This document shows positions 119 through 61,662 of a DNA stretch of 64,000 bases, one piece after another. The position numbers and the translations under genes are program-made. Numbering within the stretch: the stretch's first letter is position 1; each line of letters opens with the position of its first letter. The notes under the pieces are model-generated. The model saw nothing but the letters and a program-made list of their open reading frames with translations, was not told the DNA's origin and ran no database searches. The stretch is from NCBI GenBank assembly GCA_022571985.1, contig JACZWU010000007.1, forward strand, positions 25,986 through 89,985, in the 5' to 3' direction. This stretch comes from Candidatus Zixiibacteriota bacterium (GTDB taxonomy: Bacteria; Zixibacteria; MSB-5A5; GN15; FEB-12).

Positions 119-2758
119 TTACAAAATTATTACCAGTTTCCCCATCTCCGTCCGGCTGTCGGACTCGACCACCCAGTAGTACAAGCCCGAAACTACGCGT
201 AATCCATTGCGGCTGATTAGTCCCCACTCGGCATGTCTCGAGGTCGGGTCGCCGGGGTCTTTGTCGTGACGAATCTCTCTGACCAAATCGCCATCAAGTG
301 AAAATATGCTGATGGTGCACTTGGGAGGAATATTTGCAAAATGAATCCGACGTACTCTTTCGCTCCAGCGGTCATCCTGATTTAAACCTTCAAAGCCGCG
401 AGCACGATAATTTGCATCGATACGATACGGATTAGGGTAGACGACTATCCGTAAACTGTCATCACCCACTGCCGGGTCAACTATTTTGGCATAAACTTGC
501 CGGGCGTTCTCTGTTATCGATGTCTCTAATGGTTCAAGATTAGATTTTGGCCAGCCAAAATCCATGGCCGTCACGCTGACATAATAGGCCACAGTCGGAA
601 TTATATCTTCGATGGTGAATTCGTACTCAAAGAATTTAAGATAACCGTCATCGGTGTAGAAGTCTGCGGTAATCGAATCTGCCGGAAGTCCTTTTGGGTC
701 AGGGGCATTGGGGAAACGCTTTGTTATGGGTGTGGTAACGCCAAACTCGGAAGAATTGCCTTCGTGTTTTTCAAAATAAAAAAGTGACTCGGGGTAATTC
801 CGATGAGCATAGGGGGAACTTGGTCTATACTGGAAAACATCAAACAGAGTGTCATCACAGCCAGCCCCATAAGCGCACCTGATTTCCCGCAGGGTCATCG
901 GAAAATCGAGTAAATCCCAGCCTGCAAAAGGCTGTTTCTCGTAGTTGTATACATACTTGTCAAAATTTTCAATATCATAGGACGCAATAAACGAATAACT
1001 CGTCTCGCGGTCATCGCGGGCCAGGTAAATGCGATAGCCTTCAAAGTCTATTAACCTGGTGAAAATATCAGGAGTGTTTTCTGACTCCTGCCCGTTAAAT
1101 CTGATATTGATTCCCTTGAAAGTCGGCGTCAGCCACATTTTTGGAGCCGGCGGCGGCAGAGCCGCTCTCCAATCCGGTACGCCGTCGCCTTTGTACCAGG
1201 TTGTCTCGGCCACAGTAGCCACCCAATTAGAATTTGCATTGAGCACCGAATCAAAAACACAGACCCGGAACTCCCCGGCGTAGCCATCGTTGTCGGTGTC
1301 GATACCGGGGTTGTCGTAAATCCATCTAGCCCATTGGGCGTTTTTTAATAAATCAGAAAAATCAAGATTGGCATAGTAGGCGTCGGGGTCATCAGGCAGG
1401 TTTTTTAGATTATCGGGAGTAGTATGAAAGTTTTCACCCATGGTCATTGCAAAGACAACCCGATAAGTGCCGCCGGGACCAACTGATCCATCAGAAAGAG
1501 AAAGTAAACATTGTAAAACCGAAGCCCCGTCTGCCACATCTGCCGCCCAGGTCTGGTCGGGATATATCCAGTTCAAGTTGTAGGGGGTTATCTTTTTGGC
1601 CTGGGCGGTTTCGTAGTCTACTTCACCGTTTCTCATCAGGAAGAATTTATTTCTGTCGCCCAACGGTTCTCCACTGCCGCCGGTCTTGAAATCGCGCAGG
1701 TTTCCGCGCATGGTTGGTCCCATATCGATAGTCGGAATGGCACTAAAAGGTGTCCACCAGTTAAAGCCGACTTCCTTATCATTGGGCAGAGAGATAAAAG
1801 AAACTCCCAGCACATCCCTGACAGATTTTGTAGGAATTCCCGCCGTATCTGGTAATGGCTCCTCGGTAAAACTACCGTTTATGGGGTCGCCGTCATTATC
1901 AGCCATCCACATCAGATTAAAAGTATCAAGAAACTCACATTCACTTTGCTCTGGAAAAGATCTGATAAAACCGGAAAAATTATCGCTACGCCAACTTTGC
2001 CAGATTTCGGGACCAGGAAGATATCCGGCTTGTACGAAAAATTGTAAACCGATAGAAAGATTCTTAATCGATTGCTCCCCTATATTGGTAATAGACAGAT
2101 CAAATAGAACTATGTCTTCTGCATAGGATAGTGACCAGGCATACGATCGCTGCGTTAACTCAATAAATAGTGGCTGATGATGCCGAAAATCCAGAAAATC
2201 TCTAACGCCCTCATGACCGTCAAATGGGTTAAACTTTATCACGATGGTATCAGTATAGACAGCAATCACATCCTGCTCTGAGACAGCATCCTCATCATAA
2301 TACGGCGAACCCCTGATGCTTGATTTTCTTTGAAGCCCCTCTAATGGAAGATCGTCCGGATTGAATTCTGAATAAGGAGGGTGATTATGAAAATTCGACG
2401 GCTCAAAAAATCCGCCATAGAAGCCTTCTGTTACGAGCGTGTCCTGGCCCAGTATACCTCCTACCCAAATTGAGCCGTATTTAATCAAATTTATTCCCGA
2501 CCCGGTCGGGTATTCACTGCCTATAAAATGCTTGCTTCCCACCAGGCAGTCATAATAGTTAGGATTTACGCCATTCCCAAAATAGCCTTTGTTGGATATA
2601 TCCAATACGAATTTGCCGACGTCATGGGCAGAAACACAGGGAACAGGAAGTTCCCAGACGTTTCTTGGAATGATAAATTGGGCCTTAGCCCTGTCAGCCC
2701 CCGGGAAGACAGTAGACAAGAAGACCATTAATAAGCACTTTGAAACGATATTTGACAT
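119..2758 (-). CDS. Large secreted protein of unknown function with a T9SS-type C-terminal sorting domain
   Basis: Long ORF. The internal ATG at 2758 gives the signal peptide MSNIVSKCLLMVFLSTVFPGADRAKAQ. The C-terminus VVYPNPY...SGLYYWVVE...GKLVIIL resembles Por/FlgD-like beta-sandwich CTDs. No catalytic motif was recognised. Confidence 0.6.
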   Translation of the reverse strand: MSNIVSKCLLMVFLSTVFPGADRAKAQFIIPRNVWELPVPCVSAHDVGKFVLDISNKGYFGNGVNPNYYDCLVGSKHFIGSEYPTGSGINLIKYGSIWVGGILGQDTLVTEGFYGGFFEPSNFHNHPPYSEFNPDDLPLEGLQRKSSIRGSPYYDEDAVSEQDVIAVYTDTIVIKFNPFDGHEGVRDFLDFRHHQPLFIELTQRSYAWSLSYAEDIVLFDLSITNIGEQSIKNLSIGLQFFVQAGYLPGPEIWQSWRSDNFSGFIRSFPEQSECEFLDTFNLMWMADNDGDPINGSFTEEPLPDTAGIPTKSVRDVLGVSFISLPNDKEVGFNWWTPFSAIPTIDMGPTMRGNLRDFKTGGSGEPLGDRNKFFLMRNGEVDYETAQAKKITPYNLNWIYPDQTWAADVADGASVLQCLLSLSDGSVGPGGTYRVVFAMTMGENFHTTPDNLKNLPDDPDAYYANLDFSDLLKNAQWARWIYDNPGIDTDNDGYAGEFRVCVFDSVLNANSNWVATVAETTWYKGDGVPDWRAALPPPAPKMWLTPTFKGINIRFNGQESENTPDIFTRLIDFEGYRIYLARDDRETSYSFIASYDIENFDKYVYNYEKQPFAGWDLLDFPMTLREIRCAYGAGCDDTLFDVFQYRPSSPYAHRNYPESLFYFEKHEGNSSEFGVTTPITKRFPNAPDPKGLPADSITADFYTDDGYLKFFEYEFTIEDIIPTVAYYVSVTAMDFGWPKSNLEPLETSITENARQVYAKIVDPAVGDDSLRIVVYPNPYRIDANYRARGFEGLNQDDRWSERVRRIHFANIPPKCTISIFSLDGDLVREIRHDKDPGDPTSRHAEWGLISRNGLRVVSGLYYWVVESDSRTEMGKLVIIL

Positions 2759-21225: not shown

Positions 21226-22266
21226 ATGATTAAGTATTCACTATTCGTTTGTATCATGCTTTGGACACAAGCAAGTATTGTTTTTGCTACTCCGGAGACA
21301 CCCTCAATTATAACTAAGGTAGAAAATCCAGAACATTACGATTCGTTAGCCAAAAGTCACAAAATCTTCGAGGAAGTTTTCAACGGTTGGGAGATTACAT
21401 CCGTTTTCAATCTACTGAAGCAAGGCGAGGTTATTTATTTGTACGTTAATTTAGTGGTTCCTAAGAGAATAGCGAAAGAGGCTACGTCATTAGAACTCGG
21501 AATAAGGATGGAATTTACCAACGATTCGCTCCTTAACTATAAAGGAATAAAAGAAATCAGATTAAAGCTACAAGAAGTCTTGAAATCTATCGAAAACAAC
21601 AAATTCGTAAGGTTATTTCGAAGCAATGCAAATGTTTGCTCAGAACACCTCTATTGGCATGCAGGGTATAGTTTTGAAATTCGTTCAGAAAATGGAGATA
21701 CATTGGCGGTTGCCCCCAACTGGCCATTCTCCAAGAGAAGTGCTCGCGTTTCATGGTTTAGTTTCAATTCACGATTTCTGTTGGACTATCTGGAAGTTTT
21801 TATGGGAGCCGCAGCTTTCACTAACATCCCTGAGTTCAAAAAAAAAGTAGGTATCGGGTATGTTAAGTACACTAGAGACCAGTTGTTGGTTTCTTCAGGA
21901 AAAGACTTTAGTGGGATTAATTCATGTTTCACGTCCAGAGGGAGAGTAATTACAACGTATAAATTGTCAATGAAGTATGACTGGTCTAACTTTCCTTACT
22001 TTACAGAAGCGGTGAAACGACACAACTACTATATCATTTCTGAAACAAGGTCTAAATGCTTTCCAGCTGCAATGACCGATAAACTATTTGCAATTTTGAG
22101 TCCGTCTGCTGGAAAAGTTTCAGGGCGAGTTTACTTGCCCCTTGATTGCGAGAAAAGAATAATAAGATTTATTTCTTTTCCTGTTGAAAAGATAGAAGAC
22201 CTTGACCAGAGGCCAGTAATTCAAAGTATTTCAGTAATTGACTCTTTACTCGAAACGCTTAAATAG
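21226..22266 (+). CDS. Hypothetical secreted protein (AT-rich gene)
   Basis: Signal peptide MIKYSLFVCIMLWTQASIVFA. No recognisable motif. Visibly lower GC than its neighbours. Confidence 0.55.
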   Translation: MIKYSLFVCIMLWTQASIVFATPETPSIITKVENPEHYDSLAKSHKIFEEVFNGWEITSVFNLLKQGEVIYLYVNLVVPKRIAKEATSLELGIRMEFTNDSLLNYKGIKEIRLKLQEVLKSIENNKFVRLFRSNANVCSEHLYWHAGYSFEIRSENGDTLAVAPNWPFSKRSARVSWFSFNSRFLLDYLEVFMGAAAFTNIPEFKKKVGIGYVKYTRDQLLVSSGKDFSGINSCFTSRGRVITTYKLSMKYDWSNFPYFTEAVKRHNYYIISETRSKCFPAAMTDKLFAILSPSAGKVSGRVYLPLDCEKRIIRFISFPVEKIEDLDQRPVIQSISVIDSLLETLK

Positions 22267-22370
22267 AACGAATGGCGTAATTTTTGTGGGCGGCCGCCAA
22301 AGGCGTGTCCTCATTTGCTCATTTTCTTAAAGTGTGATAATACGGGAGCCCTCCTAAATAGGATAAGCGC

Positions 22371-23486
22371 CTACTTAGAACATTCGGCTGCGGAGCAGAC
22401 CGGGTCACCGCCTCTGAAAATAAAGTCAACCGCCGTGGTCAGATCAAGAATATTGCCACCGTCACCGTCACAGTTTAAGTCAGATGCTTCCATTGGATCT
22501 GACGGCGGGCCGCCTCTGAATATACGGTCAACCAGGAAGGTCAAATCCAGGATGTTGCCGGCCGTGCCATCAGCGTTGGCATCACCGCAAACATAACTTT
22601 GCAGCACTTCCAGTGAACCGTCAGTGATACAGATTCTTAATGTATCCAGCGACGCGATTGAATCAAGGACAACTTCAATGCTATCCCAGGAAGGGCCGGC
22701 GGTTTGCTGCCACGAGAGGCATTCAATTGTATCCGGCGGATCCTGCGTCGTGTCGATATCCCACTCAGTACAAAGGAAAAAGTTAGTGTCCCAGTAAGTT
22801 TCAAAAGTCCAGGGTGACCAATCGGGATCAGTAGTCACAATGCCAAAATTGTCAGTAAATGCTGTATTGATTCTTATAGGTATGATTTGATCTCCGAGAG
22901 TATCAGGAAATTCAAAAACATCGACAAGTACGTTAAAGAATGTTCCACCAGATTGCGGCGCAAATCCCGGCGTTATCGGTCCTCCGAAAATATCTGCAAT
23001 TCCAGCAATTATCATTATTGTTGAGAATTCAGAATATGTGGTCGCAGAAACAATTTCCCAACCGGCAATCAGGGTACCGGCCGTATCAAAATTGGCTCTG
23101 AAGACTTCAAAAGAATCGACGTGAAAAAAATCCCAGGGACTATCAGAGAATACACTTGTCGAATCAATGCAGTTGGGTCCGCTATAAGCATTACATTTCC
23201 AAAAAAGAGTATCATATACGGTGACACTATCAGACGGGAAATAGATAAGTCCAGTACGGCCAAGATGTATTGCCAATTTAAACCCGATTATCGTATCCGG
23301 GAGATGGTCGATGTATATCGGAATCGCAATGTTAGTGGTGTTGGGAAAAGCGGTGGTATCTCCAATAGAAATAGTAACTTCACAATCTTCAATCTGATTT
23401 GGAGAATTCTTAGCCGTAGGCGCCAGAAAAAGCATAGTGACTAAAGCCAGAAAGGTAACTTTTCGGAATGAGATTTGTGAGGACAT
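22371..23486 (-). CDS. Secreted protein with C-terminal dockerin-like double Ca-binding repeat
   Basis: N-terminal signal/anchor. C-terminus GDANADGTAGNILDLTFLVDRIFRGG and DLNCDGDGGNILDLTTAVDFIFRGG match D-x-N-x-DG-x4-D dockerin loops. Confidence 0.6.
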   Translation of the reverse strand: MSSQISFRKVTFLALVTMLFLAPTAKNSPNQIEDCEVTISIGDTTAFPNTTNIAIPIYIDHLPDTIIGFKLAIHLGRTGLIYFPSDSVTVYDTLFWKCNAYSGPNCIDSTSVFSDSPWDFFHVDSFEVFRANFDTAGTLIAGWEIVSATTYSEFSTIMIIAGIADIFGGPITPGFAPQSGGTFFNVLVDVFEFPDTLGDQIIPIRINTAFTDNFGIVTTDPDWSPWTFETYWDTNFFLCTEWDIDTTQDPPDTIECLSWQQTAGPSWDSIEVVLDSIASLDTLRICITDGSLEVLQSYVCGDANADGTAGNILDLTFLVDRIFRGGPPSDPMEASDLNCDGDGGNILDLTTAVDFIFRGGDPVCSAAECSK

Positions 23487-23876
23487 TTTACCTCCAAAAA
23501 ATTGTATGCCTGAAATTCAACCTCCCACTTTTCGGGCTTTAAATTCAGAGCAAATATTATTGTTTGAACAGTCGAAAAGTTAGCGATTACTTTAGTAAGT
23601 ACCTGATCCCTTTTGTTAAAAAAGTAAGAGATAGTAAATAGTCTTCTAAAAGAGAATATAGGAACCAGGTCATTTATTGTCAAGCGGAAGTTTCGTGGTG
23701 GGCCACCCGGCCGATAGCTTACCCAAAAACCCGTAACTGCTTGATAATCTGGCTTTAATATGCTATTATATTATAGTTGCTCCATCTGTTCATTAAACGG
23801 TTGAGGGTTGTGGTGCGTCCATAATTACAGCCATAACTGAAATGGTGAGTAGAAGGGTATTATTTTAAGTGGAGTC

Positions 23877-24674
23877 ATGAATCTAAAAGTATCTAATACG
23901 GGCTTAATAATTCTAGTGCTTGTTACTGTATTACTGTCATGTACCGAAAAAACAACAATCATTCGGCCAATTGACGGTGATGCCGTCCACTTGTTTGGGG
24001 TAGTATATGCGTGGCGATGTTACGGTCCAAACGACCCCTTTAACAATCCTACTGAGGAGCATCTAAATCGATTTTCCATGAAAACCGGTGAACCGGCTAA
24101 GATTACATTTATCAGAGATAATGGTTTTGAATCGCAATGGGAGACTGATGATTCTTCTTCGTTTGAGCGTTACATGAGTGCCGGGACGTACATCGCTGTT
24201 GTTGAAACCGGCTACACTTGGCCACCGGATACATTCTACAACATTCATCTCACACCGGGCGACACCGCGCTTAGACTCGATATCGGATATGATGTAATTG
24301 ACCCCCTACATCTTACTTTTGCTTTTCAATATCCAACAATCAACGACCTTCAGCCAGTTGCTGAGGAATTTGATGCTATTCTCAAAACAGGAAATCTGGC
24401 TAGAAGAATTCATGTTCCCGGTCCGCTCAATATCCTGTACACTATGTCCCCTGACACTTATGTTACAGATACCTTTTGTTTTGAAAATCCACATGGTCCC
24501 TGCTGGGTCTATCATGAAGTTCCTGTTATTCGCGAATTAGGCGGGTATGGCGAATTATGGAATGTTCTGGACGCGTACCATAGCATCATGGCAGCAAAAG
24601 AGTCAGATACGACTGGAGTCGTGCCGGCCAATCTGTCACTCCACCCTACCGGGGTATATTTCTGTCTTCACTAA
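23877..24674 (+). CDS. Hypothetical lipoprotein
   Basis: Lipobox-like LVTVLLSC at the N-terminus. No other motif. Confidence 0.5.
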   Translation: MNLKVSNTGLIILVLVTVLLSCTEKTTIIRPIDGDAVHLFGVVYAWRCYGPNDPFNNPTEEHLNRFSMKTGEPAKITFIRDNGFESQWETDDSSSFERYMSAGTYIAVVETGYTWPPDTFYNIHLTPGDTALRLDIGYDVIDPLHLTFAFQYPTINDLQPVAEEFDAILKTGNLARRIHVPGPLNILYTMSPDTYVTDTFCFENPHGPCWVYHEVPVIRELGGYGELWNVLDAYHSIMAAKESDTTGVVPANLSLHPTGVYFCLH

Positions 24675-27642: not shown

Positions 27643-27716
27643 GGGCCCTTAGCTCAGTTGGTTAGAGCAGCTGACTCATAATCAGCGGGTCGCAGGTTCG
27701 AGTCCTGCAGGGCCCA
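27643..27716 (+). tRNA. tRNA-Met (anticodon CAT; elongator type, Ile-lysidine type not excluded)
   Basis: Cloverleaf read by hand: acceptor GGGCCCT/AGGGCCC, D arm GCTC/GAGC, anticodon arm GCTGA-CTCATAA-TCAGC, T arm GCAGG-TTCGAGT-CCTGC. Confidence 0.9.
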
Positions 27717-27741: not shown

Positions 27742-27818
27742 GGGCAATTAGCTCAGTTGGTTAGAGCGTTCGGTTCACATCCGAGAGGTCACTGGTTCGA
27801 ATCCAGTATTGCCCACCA
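27742..27818 (+). tRNA. tRNA-Val (anticodon CAC), CCA encoded
   Basis: Acceptor GGGCAAT/ATTGCCC, anticodon loop TTCACAT, T arm ACTGG-TTCGAAT-CCAGT, 3' ACCA. Confidence 0.9.
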
Positions 27819-28786: not shown

Positions 28787-30259
<1,473 letters not shown>

Positions 30260-30324: not shown

Positions 30325-30697
30325 GAAAGCAGGAGGAGCAGTCGCGCTTTAAGAAATCCTTTTAGAGTGAGGAAAGTCCGAGCTCCAGAGAATCAGGACG
30401 CCCGGTAACTCCGGGGCGGAGTGATCCGACGGATAGTGCCACAGAAAAAAAACCGCCTCGACTTTTTAAGTCGGGGTAAGGGTGAAAACGTGGTGTAAGA
30501 GACCACGAGTGCCACCAGAGATGGCGGTGCTGGTAAACCCCGTCCGGAGCAAGGTCAAATAGGGAAAGAGGCGTTGATTCGCGCCGTTCGATTTCCGGGT
30601 AGACCGCAAGGAGCAGTCGGGTAACCGCCTGCCAAGATAAATGGCTGCTGTTCCGATTTTAATCGGGATACAGAACTCGGCTTATACTCCAGCTTTC
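30325..30697 (+). ncRNA. rnpB: RNase P RNA, bacterial type A
   Basis: P1 pairing gaaagcaggag/ctccagctttc. Universal GAGGAAAGTCCGAGC (P4), ACAGAAA, GGGTGAAA, GGTAAACCCC and ACAGAACTCGGCTTAT elements appear in canonical order. Confidence 0.9.
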
Positions 30698-30729
30698 AAA
30701 AGACCTTCAACAAAAATTGGAGGCCATAA

Positions 30730-32475
30730 ATGATCCAGTCTTTGAGAACCAAAAACCCGATCTGGGATGTGGTTCCTGTACCGGATTCTTCCACTGTCAG
30801 AGATCTGTCCGAAGCTCTGGAACTTCCGCCAGCCATTGTCAAAATTCTCTTGAACAGAGGCTTTGATTCCCCTGAAGCTGTAGAAAAATTCCTTAATCCC
30901 CAGCTTTCAGATTTGCATGACCCGTTTTTGCTGCATGGCATGGACAAAGCCATGGAGCGGGTTACCAAAGCGCTGCTGGCCAACGAGAGAATAATAATTT
31001 ACGGTGACTACGATGTCGACGGCATAACGGCCACCTCGCTTTTGTACATCATCTTTAACAAACTGGGAGCACAGGTAGATTACTTTTTGCCGAACAGGCT
31101 GGTTGAAGGTTACGGGCTTTCTGTTGATGGTATCGACGAAGCCAGGAAAAAGGGTGTTGATCTGATTATCACTGTTGATACCGGCATCAATGCGGTTGAT
31201 GAAGTAGCCTATGCTAATTCACAGGGTATCGATGTAATAATAACAGATCATCACGAACCGCGCGAAATTCTTCCCGAGGCGGTAGCCATAATAAACCCTA
31301 AGCAGGAACAATGTCAGTTTAACGAAGAATTGTCAGGTGTGGGAGTCGCCTTTAAGTTTGCGCAGGCGGTGTACAAATCCCTGGGGCAAAACGAAGCAGA
31401 TCTGTATGAGCATCTTGACCTGGTAGCTCTGGGAACCGCCGCCGATATCGTTCCTCTGGTAGGTGAAAACAGAGTTTTGACCAGATTTGGAATTCCGCAG
31501 ATATCCCGGACTACCAAACCGGGTTTAAAATCGCTGACATTTGTTTCAGGCCTGATGGGCAAGGATATTTCTACAGGGCAGGTTGTTTTTGTGCTCGCTC
31601 CCAGAATAAACGCCATTGGCAGACTTGGCGATGCCAAAGAAGCTATCCGGCTTTTATCGACGCGGGATGAAAAGGTGGCGCAGGAAGTTGCCCGCAAACT
31701 CGACGACGACAACCGCAAACGCAAACGTATTGACGAAGAAACCTTAAATGAAGCCCTGGCACAGCTGGAAGAGATTGCAGATCTGGAAAATGACAAGGCT
31801 ATTGTGCTGGCCGGTGAGGGCTGGCATCTGGGTGTAATCGGCATCGTGGCCAGCAGGATTGTAGAGAGATATCATCTGCCGACTGTAATGATTTCATTAA
31901 AAGACGGCATAGGCAAAGGCTCGGCGCGCTCTATCCCCGGTTTTCATCTGTGTGAAGCACTAAACAAGTGCGAGGATTTACTGCTTCAGTATGGCGGTCA
32001 CAAATATGCCGCCGGACTGTCTATAGAATCCAAGAACGTAGAAGAGTTCCGCAAGAAATTTATTGAAGTCTCAAACAGCGAACTTACTGCTGACGATATC
32101 CAGCCCAAACTGAAAATTGATATGGAATTAGAACTATCGGAAGTAACTGACAATTTCATGGAGCTGCTGGAGAAGTTTGCACCGTTTGGGCCTCAGAATA
32201 TGCGGCCGGTTTTTCTGACTCGTAATTGCGAGATAGTCGGACGCCCAAGTGTGGTCGGCAATAATCATCTTCGCATGAGAGTTCGCAAAGGCAGCACTGT
32301 AATTGATGTTATTGGTTTTGGTTTCGGCGATATGCTGAGCCAGATATCGACCGGTTCACTTGTAGATTCTGTTTATACGCTGGAATATAATACTTATAAC
32401 AATGTTACCCGGGTGCAGATGCGTATTAAAGATATCAAACTGACAGTCAGTACTATGGCGCCCGATTATAAGTAG
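30730..32475 (+). CDS. recJ: Single-stranded-DNA-specific exonuclease RecJ
   Basis: DHH family motifs: GDYDVDGITA, TVDTG, ITDHHEP, GGHKYAAG (DHHA1). Confidence 0.9.
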   Translation: MIQSLRTKNPIWDVVPVPDSSTVRDLSEALELPPAIVKILLNRGFDSPEAVEKFLNPQLSDLHDPFLLHGMDKAMERVTKALLANERIIIYGDYDVDGITATSLLYIIFNKLGAQVDYFLPNRLVEGYGLSVDGIDEARKKGVDLIITVDTGINAVDEVAYANSQGIDVIITDHHEPREILPEAVAIINPKQEQCQFNEELSGVGVAFKFAQAVYKSLGQNEADLYEHLDLVALGTAADIVPLVGENRVLTRFGIPQISRTTKPGLKSLTFVSGLMGKDISTGQVVFVLAPRINAIGRLGDAKEAIRLLSTRDEKVAQEVARKLDDDNRKRKRIDEETLNEALAQLEEIADLENDKAIVLAGEGWHLGVIGIVASRIVERYHLPTVMISLKDGIGKGSARSIPGFHLCEALNKCEDLLLQYGGHKYAAGLSIESKNVEEFRKKFIEVSNSELTADDIQPKLKIDMELELSEVTDNFMELLEKFAPFGPQNMRPVFLTRNCEIVGRPSVVGNNHLRMRVRKGSTVIDVIGFGFGDMLSQISTGSLVDSVYTLEYNTYNNVTRVQMRIKDIKLTVSTMAPDYK

Positions 32476-32479
32476 ACAG

Positions 32480-33421
32480 ATGGTTTCGCTCGATAAATTT
32501 TATAACGGCAATGTGCGCGCTCTTTCACAACTGATCAGCGCCATTGAGTATCAGCAAAATGGTGTCCATAAAACTCTTGGTGAAATTTTCCCTAAAGCGG
32601 CCGGTTCAATAAAAATCGGCATTACCGGTCCTCCCGGAGCAGGTAAATCGACTCTGGTCAACAGTCTGGTTCATAAATTTATTGATAGCGGCAGCAAAGT
32701 CGGCATTCTGGCGGTCGACCCTACTTCGCCTTTTACCGGCGGAGCGCTACTCGGTGACAGGGTGCGCATGAATGAATTTCCAATTGACGGCCGAGTTTAC
32801 TTTCGTTCGATGGCCACCCGCGGCAGCAGCGGCGGCCTTTCGGCTGCTACTGATAATGCTACTTTAGCACTGGGGGCTTTTGGATATGACATTATTCTGA
32901 TAGAAACCGTCGGTGTCGGGCAGGTTGAACTGGATATAATAGATTCCTGCGATACGGTCATAGTTGTGCTGGTTCCGGAATCGGGCGATTCGGTACAGAC
33001 GATGAAAGCCGGACTGATGGAGATCGGCGATATTTTTGTAGTCAACAAATGCGACCGTCCCGGTTCCGACAGGATGGCCGCAGACCTGCGCTACGCCATT
33101 GACAGCTGGAAACGACTTGATGCAGGCTGGAACGCTCCGGTGGTCTGCACCGAGGCCATCAACGGAAAAAACCTGGAGGAGCTCTTTGAGTCGGTTCAGA
33201 CTTTTATAAAGTACAGCAAAGATTCCGGCAGGTTTGTGAAGCAGAGACGCTCACAGATAAGCAAAAAAATTATGTCTCTCTTGCAGAGCAGATTCAGGCA
33301 GGAATTTCTGGAGCAGATAGACAGCGGCGAAAAAATTGAGTCGTACATTGATGATATAGTGAGTGGAAAGTCAGACCCTTTTGCCGCCGGAGAAAAGCTG
33401 TATCAGAAATTTCGTAAGTAA
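32480..33421 (+). CDS. meaB: MeaB/ArgK-type G-protein chaperone of B12-dependent mutases
   Basis: GITGPPGAGKSTLV P-loop, ETVGVGQ, VNKCD. Genomic context with the mutase genes. Confidence 0.85.
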   Translation: MVSLDKFYNGNVRALSQLISAIEYQQNGVHKTLGEIFPKAAGSIKIGITGPPGAGKSTLVNSLVHKFIDSGSKVGILAVDPTSPFTGGALLGDRVRMNEFPIDGRVYFRSMATRGSSGGLSAATDNATLALGAFGYDIILIETVGVGQVELDIIDSCDTVIVVLVPESGDSVQTMKAGLMEIGDIFVVNKCDRPGSDRMAADLRYAIDSWKRLDAGWNAPVVCTEAINGKNLEELFESVQTFIKYSKDSGRFVKQRRSQISKKIMSLLQSRFRQEFLEQIDSGEKIESYIDDIVSGKSDPFAAGEKLYQKFRK

Positions 33422-33466
33422 ATAGGGCATTCAAAACCAGATATCATTAAAGGAGAGGCGAAAATT

Positions 33467-33865
33467 ATGAATGATTTAGAATTAGCCAAAATCTATTGGG
33501 GTCAATTCAATAAGAGACGTGACCTCCAATGGAAAGTTAACCTTAGCTTTTGGGGGGTAATTGCACTCGTCATAGGTTTCTGTGTCACTGAGGGAGTTAA
33601 CAAATCTGTCGCTGAGAGCGAAAGTCTGCGCTATCTCTCACACGGATTAATTTTCCTTACCTATACATATTGGAGAATCGGGTTAGAAAGAGCAAACAGT
33701 ATTGACAAGAAGCGTGCTCTTCAACATATGGATAAATTATTGAGTGATAACTTTGTATATAAAAAAATTCGAAAGCCTATTCCACTTTGGGCTCCTACAG
33801 GACAAATAGCAATGACAATAATATTGCTATCAATTAGTTTAGTGGTGACAGGAATCTCAAAATAG
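33467..33865 (+). CDS. Small 3-TM membrane protein, unknown function (AT-rich insert)
   Basis: Strong AAGGAGAGG RBS. 132 aa with predicted TM segments LSFWGVIALVIGFCV, GLIFLTYTYW and IAMTIILLSISLVVTGI. No known motif. Confidence 0.5.
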   Translation: MNDLELAKIYWGQFNKRRDLQWKVNLSFWGVIALVIGFCVTEGVNKSVAESESLRYLSHGLIFLTYTYWRIGLERANSIDKKRALQHMDKLLSDNFVYKKIRKPIPLWAPTGQIAMTIILLSISLVVTGISK

Positions 33866-33965
33866 CCCACTACCGCTTTTCCTTGCGGCTTGATTTTAGG
33901 GCCTCGGTTAGCTATCATAGCCTGATGTTTTATGAGCCCTCATCGGGCAGGAGAATTGAATTAAA

Positions 33966-35663
33966 ATGTTTGCTGGTAAGTTCTTAGAGAATTTAAAAGA
34001 GAAGCTTTCAAGCTGGGATAAAAACGCCGAAAAATATCGCTCAAAAAAATCTCTGCCCAGATTTTTTACTATCTCAGGTCAAGATATCAACGAACTCTAC
34101 ACTCCGCTTGACATCAAAGGCTCAAGTGAAGACGACTATTTCGAAAAGCAGATAAATTTCCCCGGTGAGTACCCTTACACCAGAGGCATTCACCCGACCA
34201 TGTATCGCACTAAGATGTGGACTTTCCGTCAGTTTGCCGGCATGGCCTCTCCCGAAGAAACCAATCAGCGCTTCAAATATATTCTGGCTCAGGGCGGCAC
34301 CGGCCTTTCGGCGGCTTTTGATCTGCCGACTCTGATGGGCTACGATTCCGACCATGCTCATTCTTTGGGCGAAGTCGGCAAGTGCGGGGTGGCAGTTGAC
34401 ACTCTGGCAGATATGGAATTAATTTTTGAGGGCATAGATCTGGGCAAAGTCTCAGTTTCGATGACTATCAATTCGCCGGCTTCAATTATATTAGCTATGT
34501 ACTTAGCAGTTGCTGAGAAAAAAGGCGTGGCGCTTGATAAACTGCGCGGCACTTTGCAAAACGATATCTTAAAAGAGTACATTGCTCAAAAAGAATTTAT
34601 CTATCCGCCCAAGCCGTCAATCAAACTGATTACGGATATGATGGAGTACTGCTTAAAAAACGTACCACAGTGGAACACAATTTCTATTTCAGGTTATCAT
34701 ATTCGCGAAGCCGGTTCGACCGCGGCGCAGGAGCTGGCCTTCACACTGGCCGATGGTTTCTGCTACATAGAAGCTGCTATCGAAGCCGGACTTGATATAG
34801 ATGAATTTGCACCGCGTCTGTCGTTCTTTTTTAACGCTCACTCGGATTTCTTTGAAGAGATTGCTAAATACCGGGCGGCCAGAAGAATTTATGCGCGCCA
34901 TATGAAAGAGAAATATAAAGCTAAAAACGAAAAAAGCTGGTTGCTTCGTTTTCACACCCAGACAGCAGGCTGTTCGCTTACCGCACAGCAGCCGGAAAAT
35001 AACATAGTGCGCACGGCCATTCAGGCGTTAAGCGCGGTTATGGGCGGTACCCAGTCGCTGCATACCAATTCGATGGATGAAACGCTGGCGCTGCCATCGG
35101 AAAGAGCGGCCCTGATTGCTCTTCGTACCCAGCAGGTGATTGCTCACGAAACCGGCGTAGCCAACACAGTCGACCCGCTGGGAGGCTCGTACTTTGTGGA
35201 AGCTCTGACCGACAAGATGGAAAAAGAAGCCGAAGAATATTTTGCCGAAATTGAAAAGCGCGGCGGAGTATTAACCTGTATCGAAGAAGGTTTTTTTCAG
35301 ACAGAAATTGCCCGCGCCGCTTATCAATTTCAAAAAGAGATTGAAAGTAAAGAGCGGGTCATTGTCGGCGTCAATGGTTACACTATGGAAGGTGAAAAGA
35401 TAGATATTCCGGTTCTGAAAATCGACAAGGAATGTGAAAGAAAGCAGATTGCTGCACTTAAGAAAATAAAAGCAGAGCGAAATAACGGTCAGGTTCAGGT
35501 GTTGCTCGATAAACTAAAACAGGTTGCCACAGACGGCGGTAATACTTTTGAAGCGATTCTCGAGTGCAGCCGCGAATACGCGACGTTAGGCGAGATGTGC
35601 GATGTCTTGCGCGATGTCTGGGGTGAACATGTGGAAAACCCTGCTGCCATGCAGGTGTCATAA
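33966..35663 (+). CDS. Acyl-CoA mutase catalytic subunit with isobutyryl-CoA-mutase-type signature (IcmA-like)
   Basis: [10 protein letters not shown] and [15 protein letters not shown] mutase core. RQF(90)AG and EYIAQ(208)KEFIYPP carry Phe/Gln where methylmalonyl-CoA mutase has Tyr89/Arg207. No B12 domain. Confidence 0.8.
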
Positions 35664-35669
35664 AAATTC

Positions 35670-36761
35670 ATGATTGAAACTAAAGAAAAGATTTGTTTTG
35701 TAATTATGCCGATAGGTAAGCATGATGATAAATCTACCGAATATTGGAAAAGTATCTACGAAGATATAATCAAGCCGGCTGTTGAATATACGGATTCAAG
35801 TATAAAATGCTTTAGAGCTGACGATGAGGCTAAATCAGGGCAGATAACCCCTGATATAATTCGTCATCTATATCAAAGTTTCCTTTGCGTAGCTGACGTT
35901 ACAAGAAAAAATCCCAATGTTTACTATGAACTTGGGTTAAGGGATTCCTGGCACAATAGAACAATTACTATTACACAAGAATTTGGTGACATTGTTTTTG
36001 ACAGATCGGATATACGAGCCATTAGATATAAGGTAGATGACTCCAAAGCACAATCTGAATTCAATAGGAAAATGAAAGAAGCGATACTGGACATATTGAA
36101 GAATCCGAATGAGGTTAGAAATAAAGTTCAAGAAATGTTGGATAAGAAAAGAGGAGATTCTACGGAAAATCGTTTGCGACAAATGCTGAAAAAACAAGAA
36201 GCTCCGAGAAAGTTAGCGCATGATTATATGCAGAGGAGAATCAGCAACTTGCTCCCCATTATGGATTATAGGAACGATAACCACGAAATCAAGACGCCCG
36301 AGTTTTTTTCACCGTACGTAAGAGTAAAAGGGAATGAGAAAACTCTTCTTCTGTTGATGAATAGCTATGATCCCAGGAAAAACAAGACGGAGTATATGGT
36401 ACGGGTTGCTTCAAATCTTGATGCGCTTATTAAGAGTAGCTTCATCTACGGTATTTTTGATGGTGAGATTGAAAAAAACTTTTCCATTGATTCTGATCCA
36501 ATAATAAAGATTAACGATATTTCCAATTTGCTATTCATATTGCCCTTTGAGGGTAGATTGAACGATAATTCAAGCCTGCTTGCTAGCCTTAAACATCATT
36601 TTGAAAGTGTTAGGAAAAAGTACATCTCTAAGGGAATACCACTAACCCATAATAAAGCCACGGATTTATCTACTAGCAATGGAAAAGTAAAATTTGAAGT
36701 GTGGGATATTGTAAAACTGAATGTGCTTGAAAAGGAAAATCGTTTGACATTTAGTACATAA
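35670..36761 (+). CDS. Hypothetical protein with N-terminal NDT/TIR-like Rossmannoid domain (AT-rich insert)
   Basis: [10 protein letters not shown]...IIKPAV...[23 protein letters not shown]...TITIT resembles nucleoside 2-deoxyribosyltransferase / TIR-like folds. The C-terminal 230 aa have no recognised motif. Confidence 0.45.
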
Positions 36762-36762
36762 T

Positions 36763-37188
36763 GTGAAAAGTATAGTTATGGAAAAGAAAGTAAGAGTATT
36801 GTTAGCCAAGCCCGGTCTTGACGGGCACGACCGCGGAGTAAAAGTAATAGCGGCGGCGCTGCGTGATGCCGGTATGGAAGTAATTTACACCGGCCTGCGT
36901 CAGACGCCGCAGATGATTGTAGATGCCGCCATTCAGGAAGATGTCGACGCTATCGGGGTGTCGATACTTTCAGGTGCGCATATGACCTTGTTTCCGGCAA
37001 TTTTAGAGGAACTAAAAGCCAAAGATGCCACCGATATAATTTTGTTCGGCGGCGGCATTATTCCCGACGACGACAAAGCCGAACTGGAAAAGATGGGCGT
37101 GGCCAAGATATTCACTCCGGGTGCGCCAACCGAAGAAGCGATAAAATTTCTCAGAGAGGCTGCCGGTTCGCGCAGTCCCAAAGAGTAA
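36763..37188 (+). CDS. B12-binding small subunit of a split acyl-CoA mutase (IcmB/McmA2-like)
   Basis: [20 protein letters not shown] carries the DxHxxG cobalamin motif. SILSGAH and GGGIIP are present. The start is GTG 36763 or ATG 36778. Confidence 0.9.
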
Positions 37189-41844: not shown

Positions 41845-43413
41845 ATGGCTGATAAGAAAAAGACATCATCAGATATAGAATTGCCTGTCGTAGCCAAGGC
41901 GTCAGAGAATGCGAAAAACACTTTGCCGCTTCCGGGAGAATATCCCTATACCCGCGGCATATATGCCGATATGTACCAGGGTCGTCTCTGGACAATGCGT
42001 CAGTACGCCGGTTATGGAACCGCCGAAGAAACCAACCGCCGTTTCAAATATCTGATGGAAAAAGGACAGAAGGCGCTGTCGGTAGCATTTGATCTGGCAA
42101 CTCAAATCGGCTACGACTCGGACCATCCCATGGCGGCTGGAGAGGTTGGCCGCACCGGGGTGGCTATCGATTCAATCGAAGATATGGAAACTTTATTTGA
42201 TGGCATTCCGCTGTCGGAAGTTTCAACTTCGATGACCATTAATTCTACAGCTGTAATTCTGCTGGCGCTTTATATTGCAGTCGGCAAAAAACAGGGTGTG
42301 GCGCCGGAGCAGCTGACCGGCACGGTTCAAAATGATATTCTCAAAGAATTTATTGCCCGCGGCACTTATATTTTTCCGCCGGGTCCGTCTATGAAAATCG
42401 TCACTGATATTTTTGAGTATGCGGGCAAGCATCTGCCGAAATACAACTGCATTTCAATCTCCGGCTACCATATCAGAGAAGCCGGTTCAACCGCGGCGCA
42501 GGAAATTGCCTTTACACTTGCTAATGCTATCGCCTATGTCAAAGCCGCTCTTGAGGCCGGTATGAAGATAGACGAATTCGCCCCGCGCCTTTCTTTTTTC
42601 TTTGCTTCGCACAATGATCTGTTTGAAGAAGTTGCCAAATTCCGGGCGGCGCGCCGGATGTGGGCTAAAATTATGAAAGAAGATTTTGGCGCCCAAAACG
42701 AACGTTCCTGGATGCTTCGTTTTCACACCCAGACCGGCGGCTCAACCTTGACAGCTCAACAGCCCGAAAATAATATTGTGAGAACAACTATTCAGGCGCT
42801 GGCGGCAACCTTGGGAGGGACGCAGTCGCTGCATACCAATTCTTTTGATGAGGCCTTGGGTCTGCCGACTGAAAAATCAGCCGAGATTGCTCTGCGCACT
42901 CAGCAGATACTGGCCTACGAATCAGGAATCGTTAGCTCAGCCGATCCTCTGGCCGGATCATACTATGTCGAATATTTAACCGATGAACTGGAAAATAAAG
43001 CAAAAGAGATTATGGCGGAAATAGACAAGCTTGGCGGCTCGGTTGCCTGTGTAGATAACGGTTTTTTCAGGGACAAAATCAGCGATGCCGCTTACAGGTT
43101 TCAAAAGAAAGTAGAAACTGGCGAAACGGTCGTGGTAGGGGTCAATAAATTTAAGTCCGGCTCCGGGCAGACCCAGAACGTGTTGAAAGTTGACGCGGGC
43201 CTAGAAAAGCAGCAAATTTCCAAGCTAAATAAATTAAAGAAAAGTCGTGACAAAAAAGCACATGAGACGGCTATGGCTGATTTACAAAAAGCAGCCGAGC
43301 AGGGCGACAACATTGTTGAACCGGTCTTAAATGCTGTTGAAAACTACGCCACCATCGGAGAAATTTCGGATGTTTTCAGAAAAGAATGGAAAGAATATCG
43401 GGAGCAAATTTAA
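41845..43413 (+). CDS. Methylmalonyl-CoA-mutase-type catalytic subunit (Tyr/Arg signature), no B12 domain
   Basis: [11 protein letters not shown](54)AG and EFIAR(172)GTYIFPP have the same 118-residue spacing as Tyr89/Arg207 of characterised MCM. Confidence 0.85.
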
Positions 43414-59150: not shown

Positions 59151-60152
59151 CTATAGCAATAGAATATGTAGTTTTGGATTAATTACTTTGGCTATCTTAT
59201 CAATATCTTTGACTGCTTGTTCGTATTTATCTCTTAAATCTTCAAACATTCTAAAATTAGGTGGCTTTTGCCAATTTAACAAAACAAATTTATTGCAGGC
59301 ATCACTTTGGTCATGAGTGATCAACTGCTCGATTGAACGCTCAACAGCAACCCAAGTCTTCTTAATTAGTGGAAAAAGTAGTTTCGTATAAGTTGGGTAT
59401 CCCAATTGCGAAAAGAAATTGTCTTGATGCCCTATAGAATGATATCTGTCATCTGGCTTCCAAGTGCACTTGAAGACTCTCTCTATGTCCCTACCACGAA
59501 TTCTCCTTTTATAAGAATGTATAGCTTTCCATTCTCGAATGGATAACGCTTGATTAATCTTGTCAATAAATTGGACTATCTGGTGTTGGTCATAAACTCC
59601 TAAAGCTTCGTATTGCTTTTCGTTTAGCTTAAGGTCAAAATTGAATTGTTTCTTGTACATTTCTGGTTCTGCTTGCGCCCTTGCTTCCATTTGGACAAAA
59701 ACTGTATGGAGAACTTGGTCAGGGACTCGTAGATTCTTAACCTCGAAGAGAAATAATTCATTCTCTTTATTGGCTCTATAGTCAGGCGTCTTATCATCAG
59801 TTTCTGCTATTTTCTCAATTTCAGAATAATTATGATCAATAATCCAGGCAATTCCATTTAATTCCGCCAACAAATCAGTCATTTTGTCGTCAAAGCCGCC
59901 ATCGTTACCAGACAATGCGTTTGACATCTGACAAAATAGAGAGAGACCATGATCTTTGACCTTCTTCAAGATCGATTCAATCATATCGATATTGGTTGCC
60001 GAATTTGTGAGAATTATCTGCACTAACTCATTTTCCAACCAATCCTTGTTACTAACTCTTTCTTCAAGCATGTCTTTGAAGAATTCCCTTAACAGTGGAT
60101 TCTTGTCCAGCTTTACGAATAGTTCATCTTTCAAATTTTCGAGCGTTGGCAT
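59151..60152 (-). CDS. Hypothetical protein with possible PD-(D/E)xK nuclease motif (AT-rich gene)
   Basis: 333 aa. DDKTPDYRANKENELFLFEVKN gives D-x12-E-x-K in a beta-strand context. Strongly AT-rich relative to its neighbours. Confidence 0.4.
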   Translation of the reverse strand: MPTLENLKDELFVKLDKNPLLREFFKDMLEERVSNKDWLENELVQIILTNSATNIDMIESILKKVKDHGLSLFCQMSNALSGNDGGFDDKMTDLLAELNGIAWIIDHNYSEIEKIAETDDKTPDYRANKENELFLFEVKNLRVPDQVLHTVFVQMEARAQAEPEMYKKQFNFDLKLNEKQYEALGVYDQHQIVQFIDKINQALSIREWKAIHSYKRRIRGRDIERVFKCTWKPDDRYHSIGHQDNFFSQLGYPTYTKLLFPLIKKTWVAVERSIEQLITHDQSDACNKFVLLNWQKPPNFRMFEDLRDKYEQAVKDIDKIAKVINPKLHILLL

Positions 60153-60270: not shown

Positions 60271-61662
60271 ATGTACGAAAAGCAAAGAACCATAAAATCG
60301 CCCATCTCTATATCCGGCATAGGCCTACATACCGGAAACAACTGCACAATGACCTTCAGGCCGGGTGAAGTTAACAGCGGTATTATCTTTGAAAGAGCCG
60401 ACCTGCCCGAAAAGCCGAGAGTACTGGCCGATATTGACCATGTGGTTGATATCTCACGAGGTACCACTTTGCAGGATGGCGAGGCCAAAGTCCACACAGT
60501 CGAGCATGTTCTGGCCGCTTTTGCCGGCCTTCAGATAGACAATATGATTGTTGAACTGGATAACAATGAACCGCCGGTGATGGATGGTTCTGCTTTGCCG
60601 TACGTCGAGAAACTTCTCAAAGCCGGCATCGTGGAGCAGGCAGAAGATAAGTTCTATCTGGAAATTGATACGCCGATGTCATATAGCGAGCCGGAACGGG
60701 GAGTAGACTTAGTTGCCATACCAGCTGATGAGCTTCGCATTACTTTTTTAATCGATTACAAAAACCCGGCGCTGGGTACGCAGTACACGACCTTGGTAGA
60801 TCTGGAAAAAGAGTTTGTCAAAGAATATGCACCGGCACGGACATTTTGTTTTTTGTCAGAGCTTGAGATGCTTCGCAAGGAAGGCTTAATAAAAGGCGGT
60901 GGAATTGACAATGCGGTGGTGATTTATGATTCGACCGAGGGACAGGTCGAGGTTGACCGGATTAAGAAAGTGCTGAACATAAAAGGGGAAGCGTTTGTAG
61001 GCAAAACCGGCATAATAAACGATGTTCCTCTGCGGTTTTACAACGAACCGGTGCGTCATAAGACTCTGGATTTACTCGGTGATTTATTACTGATAGGAGC
61101 GCCTCTCAAAGGACATATTCTGGCGGCGCGCTCGGGACACAAAGCCAATGTTGCCCTGGCCAAAAAGCTCCGGGAACTTTACAAGAAAAAGAAAATAGCC
61201 AGCAAGTATTCCGGAAAAAATGCCGGAGCGTTTCTGGATATTAACGCTATCAAGAAAATCATGCCGCACCGCTATCCGTTTCTGCTTATAGACAGGATAA
61301 TTGATCTGGTGCCGGACAAAAAAGTTGTGGCCATGAAAAATGTGACAATCAATGAACCGTTTTTCCAGGGACATTTTCCCGGTCATCCGATTATGCCGGG
61401 GGTTTTGATACTTGAGGCGATGGCGCAGTCCGGCGGGATACTGATATTAAATGCCGTTGAAAACCCCGAGGGAAAACTTGTTTATTTTCTGGGAATAGAT
61501 AATGCCAGGTTTCGCAAACCGGTTCTGCCGGGCGACCAGTTAGTATTTGAACTGACTATGAAAACTTTCAGGCGCAACATTTGTAAAATGTCGGGCAAGG
61601 CTTTTGTTGACGGCGTCGAAGTTTGCGGCGCTGATTTTATGGCAATGGTAGTGGACAAATGA
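60271..61662 (+). CDS. lpxC/fabZ: Bifunctional UDP-3-O-acyl-GlcNAc deacetylase / 3-hydroxyacyl-ACP dehydratase
   Basis: N-terminal LpxC (SGIGLHTG, HTVEHVLAA, HKTLDLLGDL). C-terminal FabZ hot-dog (LPHRYPFLLIDRI, FFQGHFPGHPIMPGVL). Confidence 0.9.
   Translation: MYEKQRTIKSPISISGIGLHTGNNCTMTFRPGEVNSGIIFERADLPEKPRVLADIDHVVDISRGTTLQDGEAKVHTVEHVLAAFAGLQIDNMIVELDNNEPPVMDGSALPYVEKLLKAGIVEQAEDKFYLEIDTPMSYSEPERGVDLVAIPADELRITFLIDYKNPALGTQYTTLVDLEKEFVKEYAPARTFCFLSELEMLRKEGLIKGGGIDNAVVIYDSTEGQVEVDRIKKVLNIKGEAFVGKTGIINDVPLRFYNEPVRHKTLDLLGDLLLIGAPLKGHILAARSGHKANVALAKKLRELYKKKKIASKYSGKNAGAFLDINAIKKIMPHRYPFLLIDRIIDLVPDKKVVAMKNVTINEPFFQGHFPGHPIMPGVLILEAMAQSGGILILNAVENPEGKLVYFLGIDNARFRKPVLPGDQLVFELTMKTFRRNICKMSGKAFVDGVEVCGADFMAMVVDK

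Follow-up and report, generated by a model that had tools for sequence, protein, structure and literature searches.

What is an AT-rich gene doing exactly between the two subunit genes of a split, B12-dependent mutase, and does it belong with a second AT-rich gene inserted one position upstream in the same operon? The question is raised by a 64-kb window (the whole stretch of DNA that was analyzed) from a metagenome-assembled genome of Candidatus Zixiibacteriota. In this window an open reading frame (ORF) of 363 residues, ORF363, separates the large subunit from the B12-binding small subunit, and a smaller frame, ORF132, separates the chaperone gene meaB from the large subunit. We favor, at somewhat better than even chances, a reading in which ORF363 is a single-polypeptide effector-plus-sensor defense gene housed in an operon junction and ORF132 is a separate cassette. 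A defense or selfish role for ORF363 is suggested by analogy.

Two independent insertions in one operon

Coordinates are those of the window, and features are on the plus strand unless stated. WIN denotes the window, L numbers denote related Zixibacteria or other loci, and P numbers denote homologous proteins (P0003 is the L001 protein). The two inserts and their genes were delimited as follows:

33425-33870, +: insert 1, the ORF132 cassette of about 445 bp, directly after the meaB stop; aligned to the empty sites of L006 and L008
33452-33458, +: Shine-Dalgarno-like GGAGAGG, 8 nt 5' of the ORF132 ATG; also kept by L078 and L079 and, in part, by L005
33467-33865, +: ORF132, small membrane protein with a predicted 2-3 transmembrane (TM) helices; GC 0.373; sub-threshold match to Pfam 8xMP
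35669-36777, +: insert 2, ORF363 with minimal flanks, in the 5-nt spacer between mutase stop and B12-subunit ATG; aligned to empty L006 and L062
35670-36761, +: ORF363, 363 aa

Both ORF132 and ORF363 are true, precise insertions. In the closest relatives, L006, L008, L062, and L079, whose flanking proteins are 92-99% identical to those of the window, the empty junction between mutase and B12 subunit reads TCATAA-AAATT-ATGGAAAAG and has a spacer of 5 nt. Insert 2 consists of ORF363 with 6 nt upstream and 16 nt downstream. At the junction of meaB and mutase the distance is about 100 bp in L006, L008, and L062, the closest relatives in which it is empty, and L078 and L079 have insert-1 junctions identical to those of the window. 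The initial annotation had placed the ORF363 start 6 nt after the mutase stop, which was correct, and a GTG start of the B12 subunit directly behind ORF363, which has to be revised. The B12 subunit almost certainly starts 16 nt downstream of the ORF363 stop, at a conserved ATG (36778) that is used in the empty sites and is picked by gene callers; the GTG at 36763 is probably not its start. Insertion of ORF363 into a fused gene was also considered as the cause of the split mutase and was rejected, since the two subunits are already encoded by separate, adjacent genes where the junction is empty.

The inserts had been described as visibly AT-rich, and sliding GC together with GC3 bore this out for both genes. 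GC and GC3 were 0.373 and 0.346 for ORF132, 0.355 and 0.352 for ORF363, and 0.45-0.51 and 0.45-0.53 for neighboring genes. The ORF363 stretch was the lowest-GC segment of the whole window (0.328 versus a mean of 0.454 with a standard deviation of 0.037, in 400-bp windows). Earlier hand counts of G+C per 60 nt were exact for the start of ORF363 (17) and off for the end of the mutase gene (32, where about 35 had been claimed). Universal presence with native composition in orthologous operons was not what was found: both genes are AT-rich and both are missing from the nearest relatives. No promoter- or terminator-like sites beyond the level of shuffled sequence were found at either insert. An Rfam scan returned RNase P RNA and two tRNAs only, with no riboswitch, retron RNA, or structured RNA at either junction.

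ORF132 and ORF363 are independent insertions, not a module. All four combinations of presence and absence occurred among near-identical genomes: the window has both genes, L079 has only ORF132 (its mutase-B12 junction is empty), L001 has only ORF363, and L006 and L008/L062 lack both. ORF132 was missing from all six other ORF363-bearing lineages (L001, L002, L016, L066, L080, and L081). Its homologues numbered only six, 74-91% identical, and no relatives were found in phages or plasmids by tblastn. Those of L078 and L079 occupied the same slot between meaB and mutase, the L079 copy being 90% identical. The homologue in L005 lay outside the operon and adjoined an ArdC gene and a serine recombinase gene; the contig, with its ArdC-N gene and large serine recombinase, suggests an integrative mobile element. 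Similarity between window and L005 DNA began at the ribosome-binding site (RBS) and ATG and ended at the ORF132 stop codon, which indicates that ORF132 moves as a bare ORF. Also on this contig, at 813-1205 (minus strand) beside the ORF132 homologue, was a 130-aa protein that looked HicB-antitoxin-like by eye.

A two-gene defense or signaling module had been proposed, with ORF363 as the nucleotide-processing sensor or enzyme and ORF132 as a multi-TM effector. Enzymes of the TIR/SLOG type are often paired with small TM effectors, both genes are AT-rich and lie in the operon of the window, and ORF132 weakly matched the oligomeric membrane family 8xMP (E 7.8e-4). However, the 1.7-kb mutase gene separates the two, and a check of co-occurrence across related operons, which had been proposed along with the module, found them distributed independently. 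L079 has ORF132 alone, six lineages have ORF363 without ORF132, and the ORF132 homologue of L005 sits in a mobile setting unrelated to the operon. Apart from L005, ORF132 was restricted to one shallow clade, whereas the ORF363 subfamily spans deep lineages. We therefore hold a two-gene conflict system to be extremely unlikely.

ORF132 would instead be an unrelated small membrane-protein cassette and a separate, more recent arrival. Its hydrophobic segments were strong at residues 22-49 and 105-132 and weaker at 54-73, and two to three TM helices are predicted on this basis. The earlier description as a 3-TM protein with its own strong RBS thus stands for the GGAGAGG and only partly for the TM count. 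The match to 8xMP (PF24838) reached 19.7 bits, below the 30-bit gathering cutoff, in a colinear alignment of ORF132 residues 4-101 with profile positions 1-100 of 136. The family was matched by all seven ORF132 family members (best E 1.4e-4). ORF132 is possibly a distant relative of 8xMP, a membrane oligomer, at most; nothing relevant was found in the literature on 8xMP, octameric membrane protein, or PF24838.

Domain structure of ORF363

The AlphaFold2 (AF2) model of ORF363, with an overall predicted local distance difference test score (pLDDT) of 83, contained an N-domain, a long helix, and an alpha/beta C-domain. The corresponding features, with the N-domain compared to nucleoside 2-deoxyribosyltransferase (NDT), DNPH1, and TIR proteins, were:

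35670-36119, +: N-domain, aa 1-150, predicted NDT/DNPH1/TIR-like Rossmannoid N-glycosidase domain; AF2 mostly pLDDT >90, Foldseek, and profiles
35910-35936, +: active-site motif N81-P-N-V-Y-Y-E87-L-G89; conservation in homologues and alignment of its Glu to DNPH1
36120-36260, +: helical linker or stalk, aa 151-197, with a long helix at 165-197; AF2 secondary structure
36261-36758, +: C-domain, aa 198-363, alpha/beta and fast-evolving, ending in a WD...LE motif

By sequence and model, the N-domain has an NDT/DNPH1/TIR-type fold with a conserved active site. Its modeled elements run in the order strand 1 (7-12), helix (23-41), strand 2 (45-49), helix (59-69), strand 3 (72-76), helix (82-94), and strand 4 (98-102). 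Seven residues were invariant in 80 homologues, namely R49, N81, V84, E87, L88, G89, and D111, and the motif read N-P-N-V-x-Y-E-L-G; it was intact in 14 of the 14 full-length subfamily members.

Structure searches of the AF2 model with Foldseek returned NDT- and TIR-type folds. The PDB matches, with 8qc0 among them, covered the N-domain and were uniformly NDTs, DNPH1, the CMP N-glycosidase BcmB, or TIR domains (from MyD88, STING, and SPARTA); these were individually marginal, with a best E of 3.6e-3 and TIR matches at 5e-3 to 6e-2. Target TM-scores against NDT, DNPH1, and BcmB were 0.54-0.70. The best match in BFVD was a siphovirus protein annotated as a CMP/hydroxymethyl-CMP hydrolase (E 2.4e-9), followed by a Cap12/PycTIR protein and several annotated NDTs. 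A full-length profile run against PDB sequences was swamped by spurious linker-helix matches to designed helical bundles, and the search was repeated with the N-domain alone. This profile matched DNPH1/Rcl at E 7.9e-5 and aligned E87 of YELG to the Glu of the GYELG motif, which in DNPH1 is the catalytic nucleophile.

Pfam Nuc_deoxyrib_tr (PF05014) was matched by 13 of 25 relatives at E<=1 (best 5.2e-8), PF10137 (CAP12-PCTIR_TIR) by 12 of 25 with a best value of only 0.0017, and TIR_2 by one of 25. ORF363 itself matched the PADLOC TIR effector model PDLC00733 weakly (3e-7) and phrog_3634 strongly (E 7e-29). The initial annotation had predicted an NDT/TIR/SLOG-like fold with a helix-borne Glu from the sequence. 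Its NDT/TIR part is borne out by the AF2 model, Foldseek, and the DNPH1 profile; its SLOG part is not, as no SLOG/LOG/DprA-type family occurred among the Pfam, PADLOC, and Foldseek matches of ORF363 and its relatives.

The NDT-like N-domain was also found fused to other domains (P0081, P0087, P0050, P0073, P0078, P0100, and P0113): FtsZ/tubulin, tyrosine integrase, PF20308, and pentapeptide repeats. PF13281 was present as well in two of the three PF20308 fusions. Such modular spread by fusion is typical of conflict-system effectors.

The C-domain is private to the subfamily. An exhaustive profile search found it in nine of 1.84e9 cluster representatives, always C-terminal, and every full-length carrier also had the N-domain with its motif intact. 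Searches with the C-domain profile against Pfam and PDB sequences gave noise only.

Residence between the mutase subunits and candidate roles

The ORF363 subfamily occupied the slot between mutase and B12 subunit in all seven lineages with readable context (WIN, L001, L002-4, L016, L066, L080, and L081/82), and the gap from the mutase stop to ORF363 was 3-9 nt in five of them. Occupied lineages were scattered on a tree of mutase and B12-subunit sequences, with about seven of 29 operons occupied, and some had empty immediate sisters: L016 versus L018, L001 versus L006, and the window versus L062 and L079. The two subunit genes were directly adjacent in at least 18 Zixibacteria operons. About three quarters of orthologous operons thus lack ORF363, and among them are operons of genomes with a mutase 96-98% identical to that of the window. 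Identities of the N-domain and of the mutase gave a Spearman rho of 0.33 (p = 0.15), and the phylogeny was star-like. Compared with the adjacent mutase gene, ORF363 was lower by 9-19 points in GC and by 14-26 points in GC3 in seven of seven lineages, and its GC followed that of the host over a range of 0.31-0.48. Because this offset tracks host GC in all seven lineages, AT-richness is a standing property of ORF363 and not a mark of recent arrival.

ORF363 is a mosaic. Between the window and P0003 of L001 the N-domain was 83-97% identical (about 92%) and the C-half 23-50% (about 40%). The pattern was reversed between the window and P0002, with 67-87% identity in the N-domain and 90-100% in the C-half. 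In the window-L001 comparison, flanking genes had dS of 0.18-0.62 and dN/dS of 0.03-0.10, the N-domain a dS of 0.29 and dN/dS of 0.25, and the C-half a dS of 2.09 and dN/dS of 0.23; the identity and dS profiles shifted near residue 165. With a dS of 2.09 beside a flank-like N-domain, the C-half is a deeply diverged allele that was swapped by recombination, with the breakpoint near residue 165. Purifying selection on both halves shows that the gene is functional. Decaying foreign DNA was considered and rejected on the dN/dS of about 0.24 and the invariant active site.

Outside the subfamily, relatives of the N-domain were stand-alone genes, and none of those inspected was near a mutase. The relative in Streptococcus prophage 315.2 lay in the lysogeny module, between repressor and cro on the integrase strand; that of Staphylococcus phage P630 stood alone, antisense to the replication module; and an Enterobacter relative lay in a P2/186-like prophage, between its CI repressor and its integrase. 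P0011 adjoined a DUF433/DUF5615 toxin-antitoxin-like pair, and P0033 and P0010 were isolated chromosomal genes.

If ORF363 is a defense gene, the N-domain, with Glu87 as catalytic residue, would cleave the base-ribose bond of NAD+ or of a canonical or modified (d)NMP. A phage-type modified nucleotide is a possible substrate, since the nearest characterized enzymes are DNPH1 and CMP/hydroxymethyl-CMP hydrolases; DNPH1 is a hydroxymethyl-dUMP hydrolase. The C-domain would recognize a variable trigger, for which a phage component is the most plausible candidate, and the stalk together with oligomerization would relay the trigger to activate the N-domain. The active N-domain would then deplete a nucleotide pool, giving abortive-infection or nucleotide-depletion immunity. 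Two described systems, the NDT-like effector of retron Ec86 and Swarozyc, are precedents for this scheme, and the prophage setting of relatives and the defense-type genes in other junctions of the operon also speak for the defense reading. The absence of a detectable promoter of its own and the start 6 nt after the mutase stop suggest co-transcription and translational coupling with the mutase genes. Such an "operon-junction refuge" probably lets the gene persist because imprecise deletion would damage mutase subunits, and the highly conserved flanks would let alleles spread among close relatives through homologous recombination.

The same position could suit a servant of the enzyme. In this alternative ORF363 would be a lineage-specific accessory of the B12-dependent mutase, an N-glycosidase or base-exchange enzyme with a nucleoside related to adenosylcobalamin as its substrate. 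It might, for instance, clear 5'-deoxyadenosine set free upon cofactor inactivation or remodel the lower-ligand nucleotide of the cobamide, and it would be translated in step with the subunits. The exact placement between large and B12 subunit in all seven lineages of known context, the short upstream gap in five of them, the purifying selection, and the fact that the two-domain protein was found nowhere else among the 1.84e9 representatives would all fit, and NDT-family chemistry is base-ribose cleavage or exchange. Yet about three quarters of the orthologous operons do without ORF363, even some with mutases 96-98% identical, and its C-half exists as deeply diverged, recombining alleles (dS 2.1), whereas the mutase, its would-be partner, is highly conserved. 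Its codons remain unadapted, GC3 staying 14-26 points lower than in the mutase gene, and the nearest relatives outside the subfamily either stand alone or belong to prophage lysogeny modules, without a mutase in the vicinity. We consider an accessory enzyme distinctly unlikely, and on the patchy distribution the earlier suggestion of novel accessory subunits of the mutase is likewise unlikely. A strictly non-immune form, with ORF363 as a Zixibacteria-specific N-glycosidase or base-exchange enzyme serving the mutase by, for instance, destroying 5'-deoxyadenosine from damaged adenosylcobalamin or swapping the lower-ligand base, would explain why the two-domain protein exists only between two mutase subunits, and is in our estimate very improbable.

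A purely selfish gene, which is hard to tell apart from a defense gene, deserves more attention, though we still think it unlikely. ORF363 would then be an addiction or hitchhiker gene, a toxic N-glycosidase restrained by its own C-domain and of no benefit to the host, kept only because deletions at its junction are selected against or because losing it is toxic. Its arrival as an ORF-only insertion with no detected promoter or terminator, its patchy yet long-lived presence in the slot, the other selfish-type genes in junctions of the same operon (an HNH gene and an MNT-HEPN toxin-antitoxin-like pair), and the movement of ORF132 as a bare ORF as well are all in keeping with this. However, purifying selection on both domains and an active site invariant over deep divergence imply selection on protein function and not mere retention. 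The clean 5-nt-spacer empty sites in close relatives mean that precise loss, or recombinational replacement, happens, and neutrality accounts less well than balancing or diversifying selection for the ancient allele classes of the C-domain.

Several points weigh against the defense reading itself. The ORF363 subfamily had no defense-island context, ORF363 had no match in Pfam or NCBIfam, and its PADLOC match was weak (3e-7). The offset in composition persists and tracks the host, so that it does not speak for a recent foreign origin. The sensor role of the C-domain is drawn from analogy and evolutionary pattern, the domain having no detectable relatives in fold or sequence, and the C-termini of L016, L066, and P0007 were not detectable with the C-domain profile. 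Residence in a single slot across deep divergence, with mutases only about 70% identical, would be unusual for defense genes, which normally turn over, and strict residence beside one enzyme could equally reflect a functional tie to the mutase. For ORF132, the AF2 model (pLDDT 50) was too poor for a fold search.

Host operon, its other junctions, and known systems

The genes around the inserts were, from upstream to downstream:

28793-30259, +: guaB, the first in this gene order
30326-30700, +: RNase P RNA, bacterial class A (Rfam, 293 bits), between guaB and recJ and just upstream of the operon
30730-32475, +: recJ
32480-33421, +: meaB, the mutase G-protein chaperone and host gene upstream of insert 1; Pfam MeaB E 5.8e-82
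33966-35663, +: methylmalonyl-CoA-mutase-type large (catalytic) subunit, 565 aa; Pfam MM_CoA_mutase E 1e-226, TIGR00641 763 bits
36778-37188, +: B12-binding small subunit, from the conserved ATG; Pfam B12-binding E 2.6e-27, TIGR00640 171 bits

Downstream of the B12 subunit followed a metallo-beta-lactamase-fold protein and the carboxyltransferase, biotin carboxylase, and biotin carboxyl carrier protein (BCCP) of a propionyl-CoA-type carboxylase. Next came a second mutase paralogue, then genes for a lipoprotein and for a glyoxalase-type epimerase. The gene order given initially (meaB, 132-aa ORF, mutase large subunit, 363-aa ORF, B12 subunit) agreed with the coordinates and with Pfam and NCBIfam. 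The label IcmA for the catalytic subunit is doubtful: the NCBIfam methylmalonyl-CoA mutase model scored 634 bits against 380 bits for IcmF, and the operon has carboxylase and epimerase genes of the methylmalonyl-CoA pathway, so the protein looks like the large subunit of a split methylmalonyl-CoA mutase rather than IcmA.

The second mutase large-subunit paralogue (41845-43413, +, 522 aa) lay 3' of the BCCP gene without an adjacent B12 subunit of its own, and its L001 orthologue was about 59% identical to the first mutase. Two tRNA genes (27643-27716 and 27742-27815, +) were found further upstream of the RNase P RNA. The remaining low-GC patches of the window corresponded to genes for secreted proteins or lipoproteins or to intergenic DNA, and none was an insert at a junction. 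One, at 21226-24674, was a cluster of secreted- or lipoprotein-like genes unrelated to the operon inserts, including a protein with a dockerin-like C-terminus (22371-23486, minus strand). An AT-rich orphan of 333 aa (59151-60152, minus strand; region GC about 0.355) had no match in Pfam or PADLOC and adjoined an apparent LpxC-FabZ fusion gene (60271-61662).

Three junctions of the operon were variably filled: mutase-B12, carboxyltransferase-biotin carboxylase, and meaB-mutase. Their occupants were the NDT-like family, Mrr, HNH, MNT-HEPN, and ORF132. At the carboxyltransferase-biotin carboxylase junction, co-oriented inserts were present in three lineages, L001, L002, and L028:

L002 11270-12175: type IV Mrr restriction enzyme; PADLOC mREase_IV 8e-87
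L001 12140-13278: Zn-ribbon ORF and HNH protein; HNH Pfam 25.8 bits versus a cutoff of 21.4
L028 12329-13074: pair of MNT (PDC-S09, 5.6e-22) and HEPN (1.7e-12) genes

The window has no insert here: the biotin-carboxylase ORF starts on the very base, 39796, with which the carboxyltransferase ORF ends. On the annotation of their occupants, the junctions of the operon behave as a small hotspot for defense-type and selfish genes.

Other cargo was seen as well. The meaB-mutase gap held a polytopic, glycosyltransferase-like membrane protein in L011 (4486-5919), L013 (4523-5752), and L024 (4483-5883), all on the minus strand, and several sugar-modification-type genes in L016 (2655-5751). These are large genes, and the junction thus takes ordinary cargo too. 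In a more distant Zixibacteria clade 1-3 kb lay between mutase and B12 subunit. A conserved lipoprotein of about 140 aa stood immediately 5' of the B12 gene in L023 (7269-7700), L026 (9920-10342), L029 (10216-10653), and L057 (4618-5037). L026 and L057 shared a conserved minus-strand ORF of about 278 aa, PhzF-like by eye, of which L029 had a fragment of about 94 aa.

Comparison with known systems sets ORF363 among nucleotide-targeting enzymes and apart from each of them. With NDT/DNPH1/Rcl and MilB/BcmB (PF05014, clan Nribosyltransf) it has in common the Rossmannoid fold and the aligned, invariant Glu of V-x-Y-E-L-G. In contrast to NDT and DNPH1, ORF363 falls below all Pfam thresholds and has a stalk and a private C-domain, and in genomic setting and mosaic evolution it is like a conflict gene and unlike a salvage enzyme. 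Swarozyc (DUF4062) has a TIR-like NADase with a catalytic Glu, helical stalks, and a C-terminal AUX sensor domain; once bound to the phage portal, AUX switches on the NADase through the stalks (10.64898/2026.05.01.722283). The predicted layout of ORF363, with N-glycosidase, stalk, and C-domain in a single polypeptide, resembles it by analogy of architecture only; the C-domain of ORF363 is unrelated and private, and the gene is not in a defense island. The two families are distinct, as none of 25 ORF363 family members matched DUF4062/PF13271 at E<=1. The NDT-like anti-phage effector of retron Ec86 (Retron-Eco1) depletes adenine derivatives and has an N-lobe coupled to a C-terminal lobe (10.1101/2023.08.16.553469). 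The C-lobe of Ec86 is a winged helix-turn-helix, whereas that of ORF363 is an unrelated alpha/beta domain. As to retrons of type II-A, the operon of ORF363 had no reverse transcriptase ORF, and Rfam found no retron non-coding RNA.

Cap12/PycTIR proteins (PF10137, PDLC00733) gave weak, repeated matches (3e-7 with the window protein and, at best, 4e-15 with the relative in prophage 315.2), all below the level of family assignment. ORF363 had neither a CD-NTase or cyclase partner nor a SAVED or nucleotide-sensing domain; its neighbors were mutase, MeaB, metallo-beta-lactamase-fold, and carboxylase genes. On these sequence comparisons, ORF363 would be a new family among the known single-polypeptide TIR/NDT-type effector-plus-sensor proteins, outside DUF4062/Swarozyc, the retrons, and Cap12. 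The locus is akin to defense hotspots flanked by core genes, prophage morons, and free-standing homing endonucleases inserted between conserved phage genes in its fixed site with conserved flanks, its variable occupancy, its ORF-only insertions, and its kind of cargo (restriction enzyme, HNH protein, toxin-antitoxin-like pair). It differs from them in that its sites are junctions of a few nucleotides inside a metabolic operon, including one between subunits of a single enzyme, and in that one family has kept the same junction while the mutase diverged to about 70% identity.

What is unusual about ORF363 is that a 5-nt junction of two subunits has been held across a clade by a gene whose presumed sensor half has ancient, recombining allele classes. 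If the defense reading is right, an immune-type gene can persist for a very long time outside defense islands, translationally coupled between the subunits of a metabolic enzyme. Some discovery pipelines explicitly discard housekeeping operons (e.g., PMC13069673), and pipelines that do so, or that use defense-island neighborhoods, would miss such genes by design. The wider, uncharacterized NDT/DNPH1-like family phrog_3634, present in prophage lysogeny modules of Streptococcus, Staphylococcus, and enterobacteria, is a candidate nucleotide-targeting defense effector. Repeated occupancy by Mrr, HNH, and MNT-HEPN genes suggests that the junctions of this Zixibacteria operon may serve as a refuge for selfish and defense genes alike.

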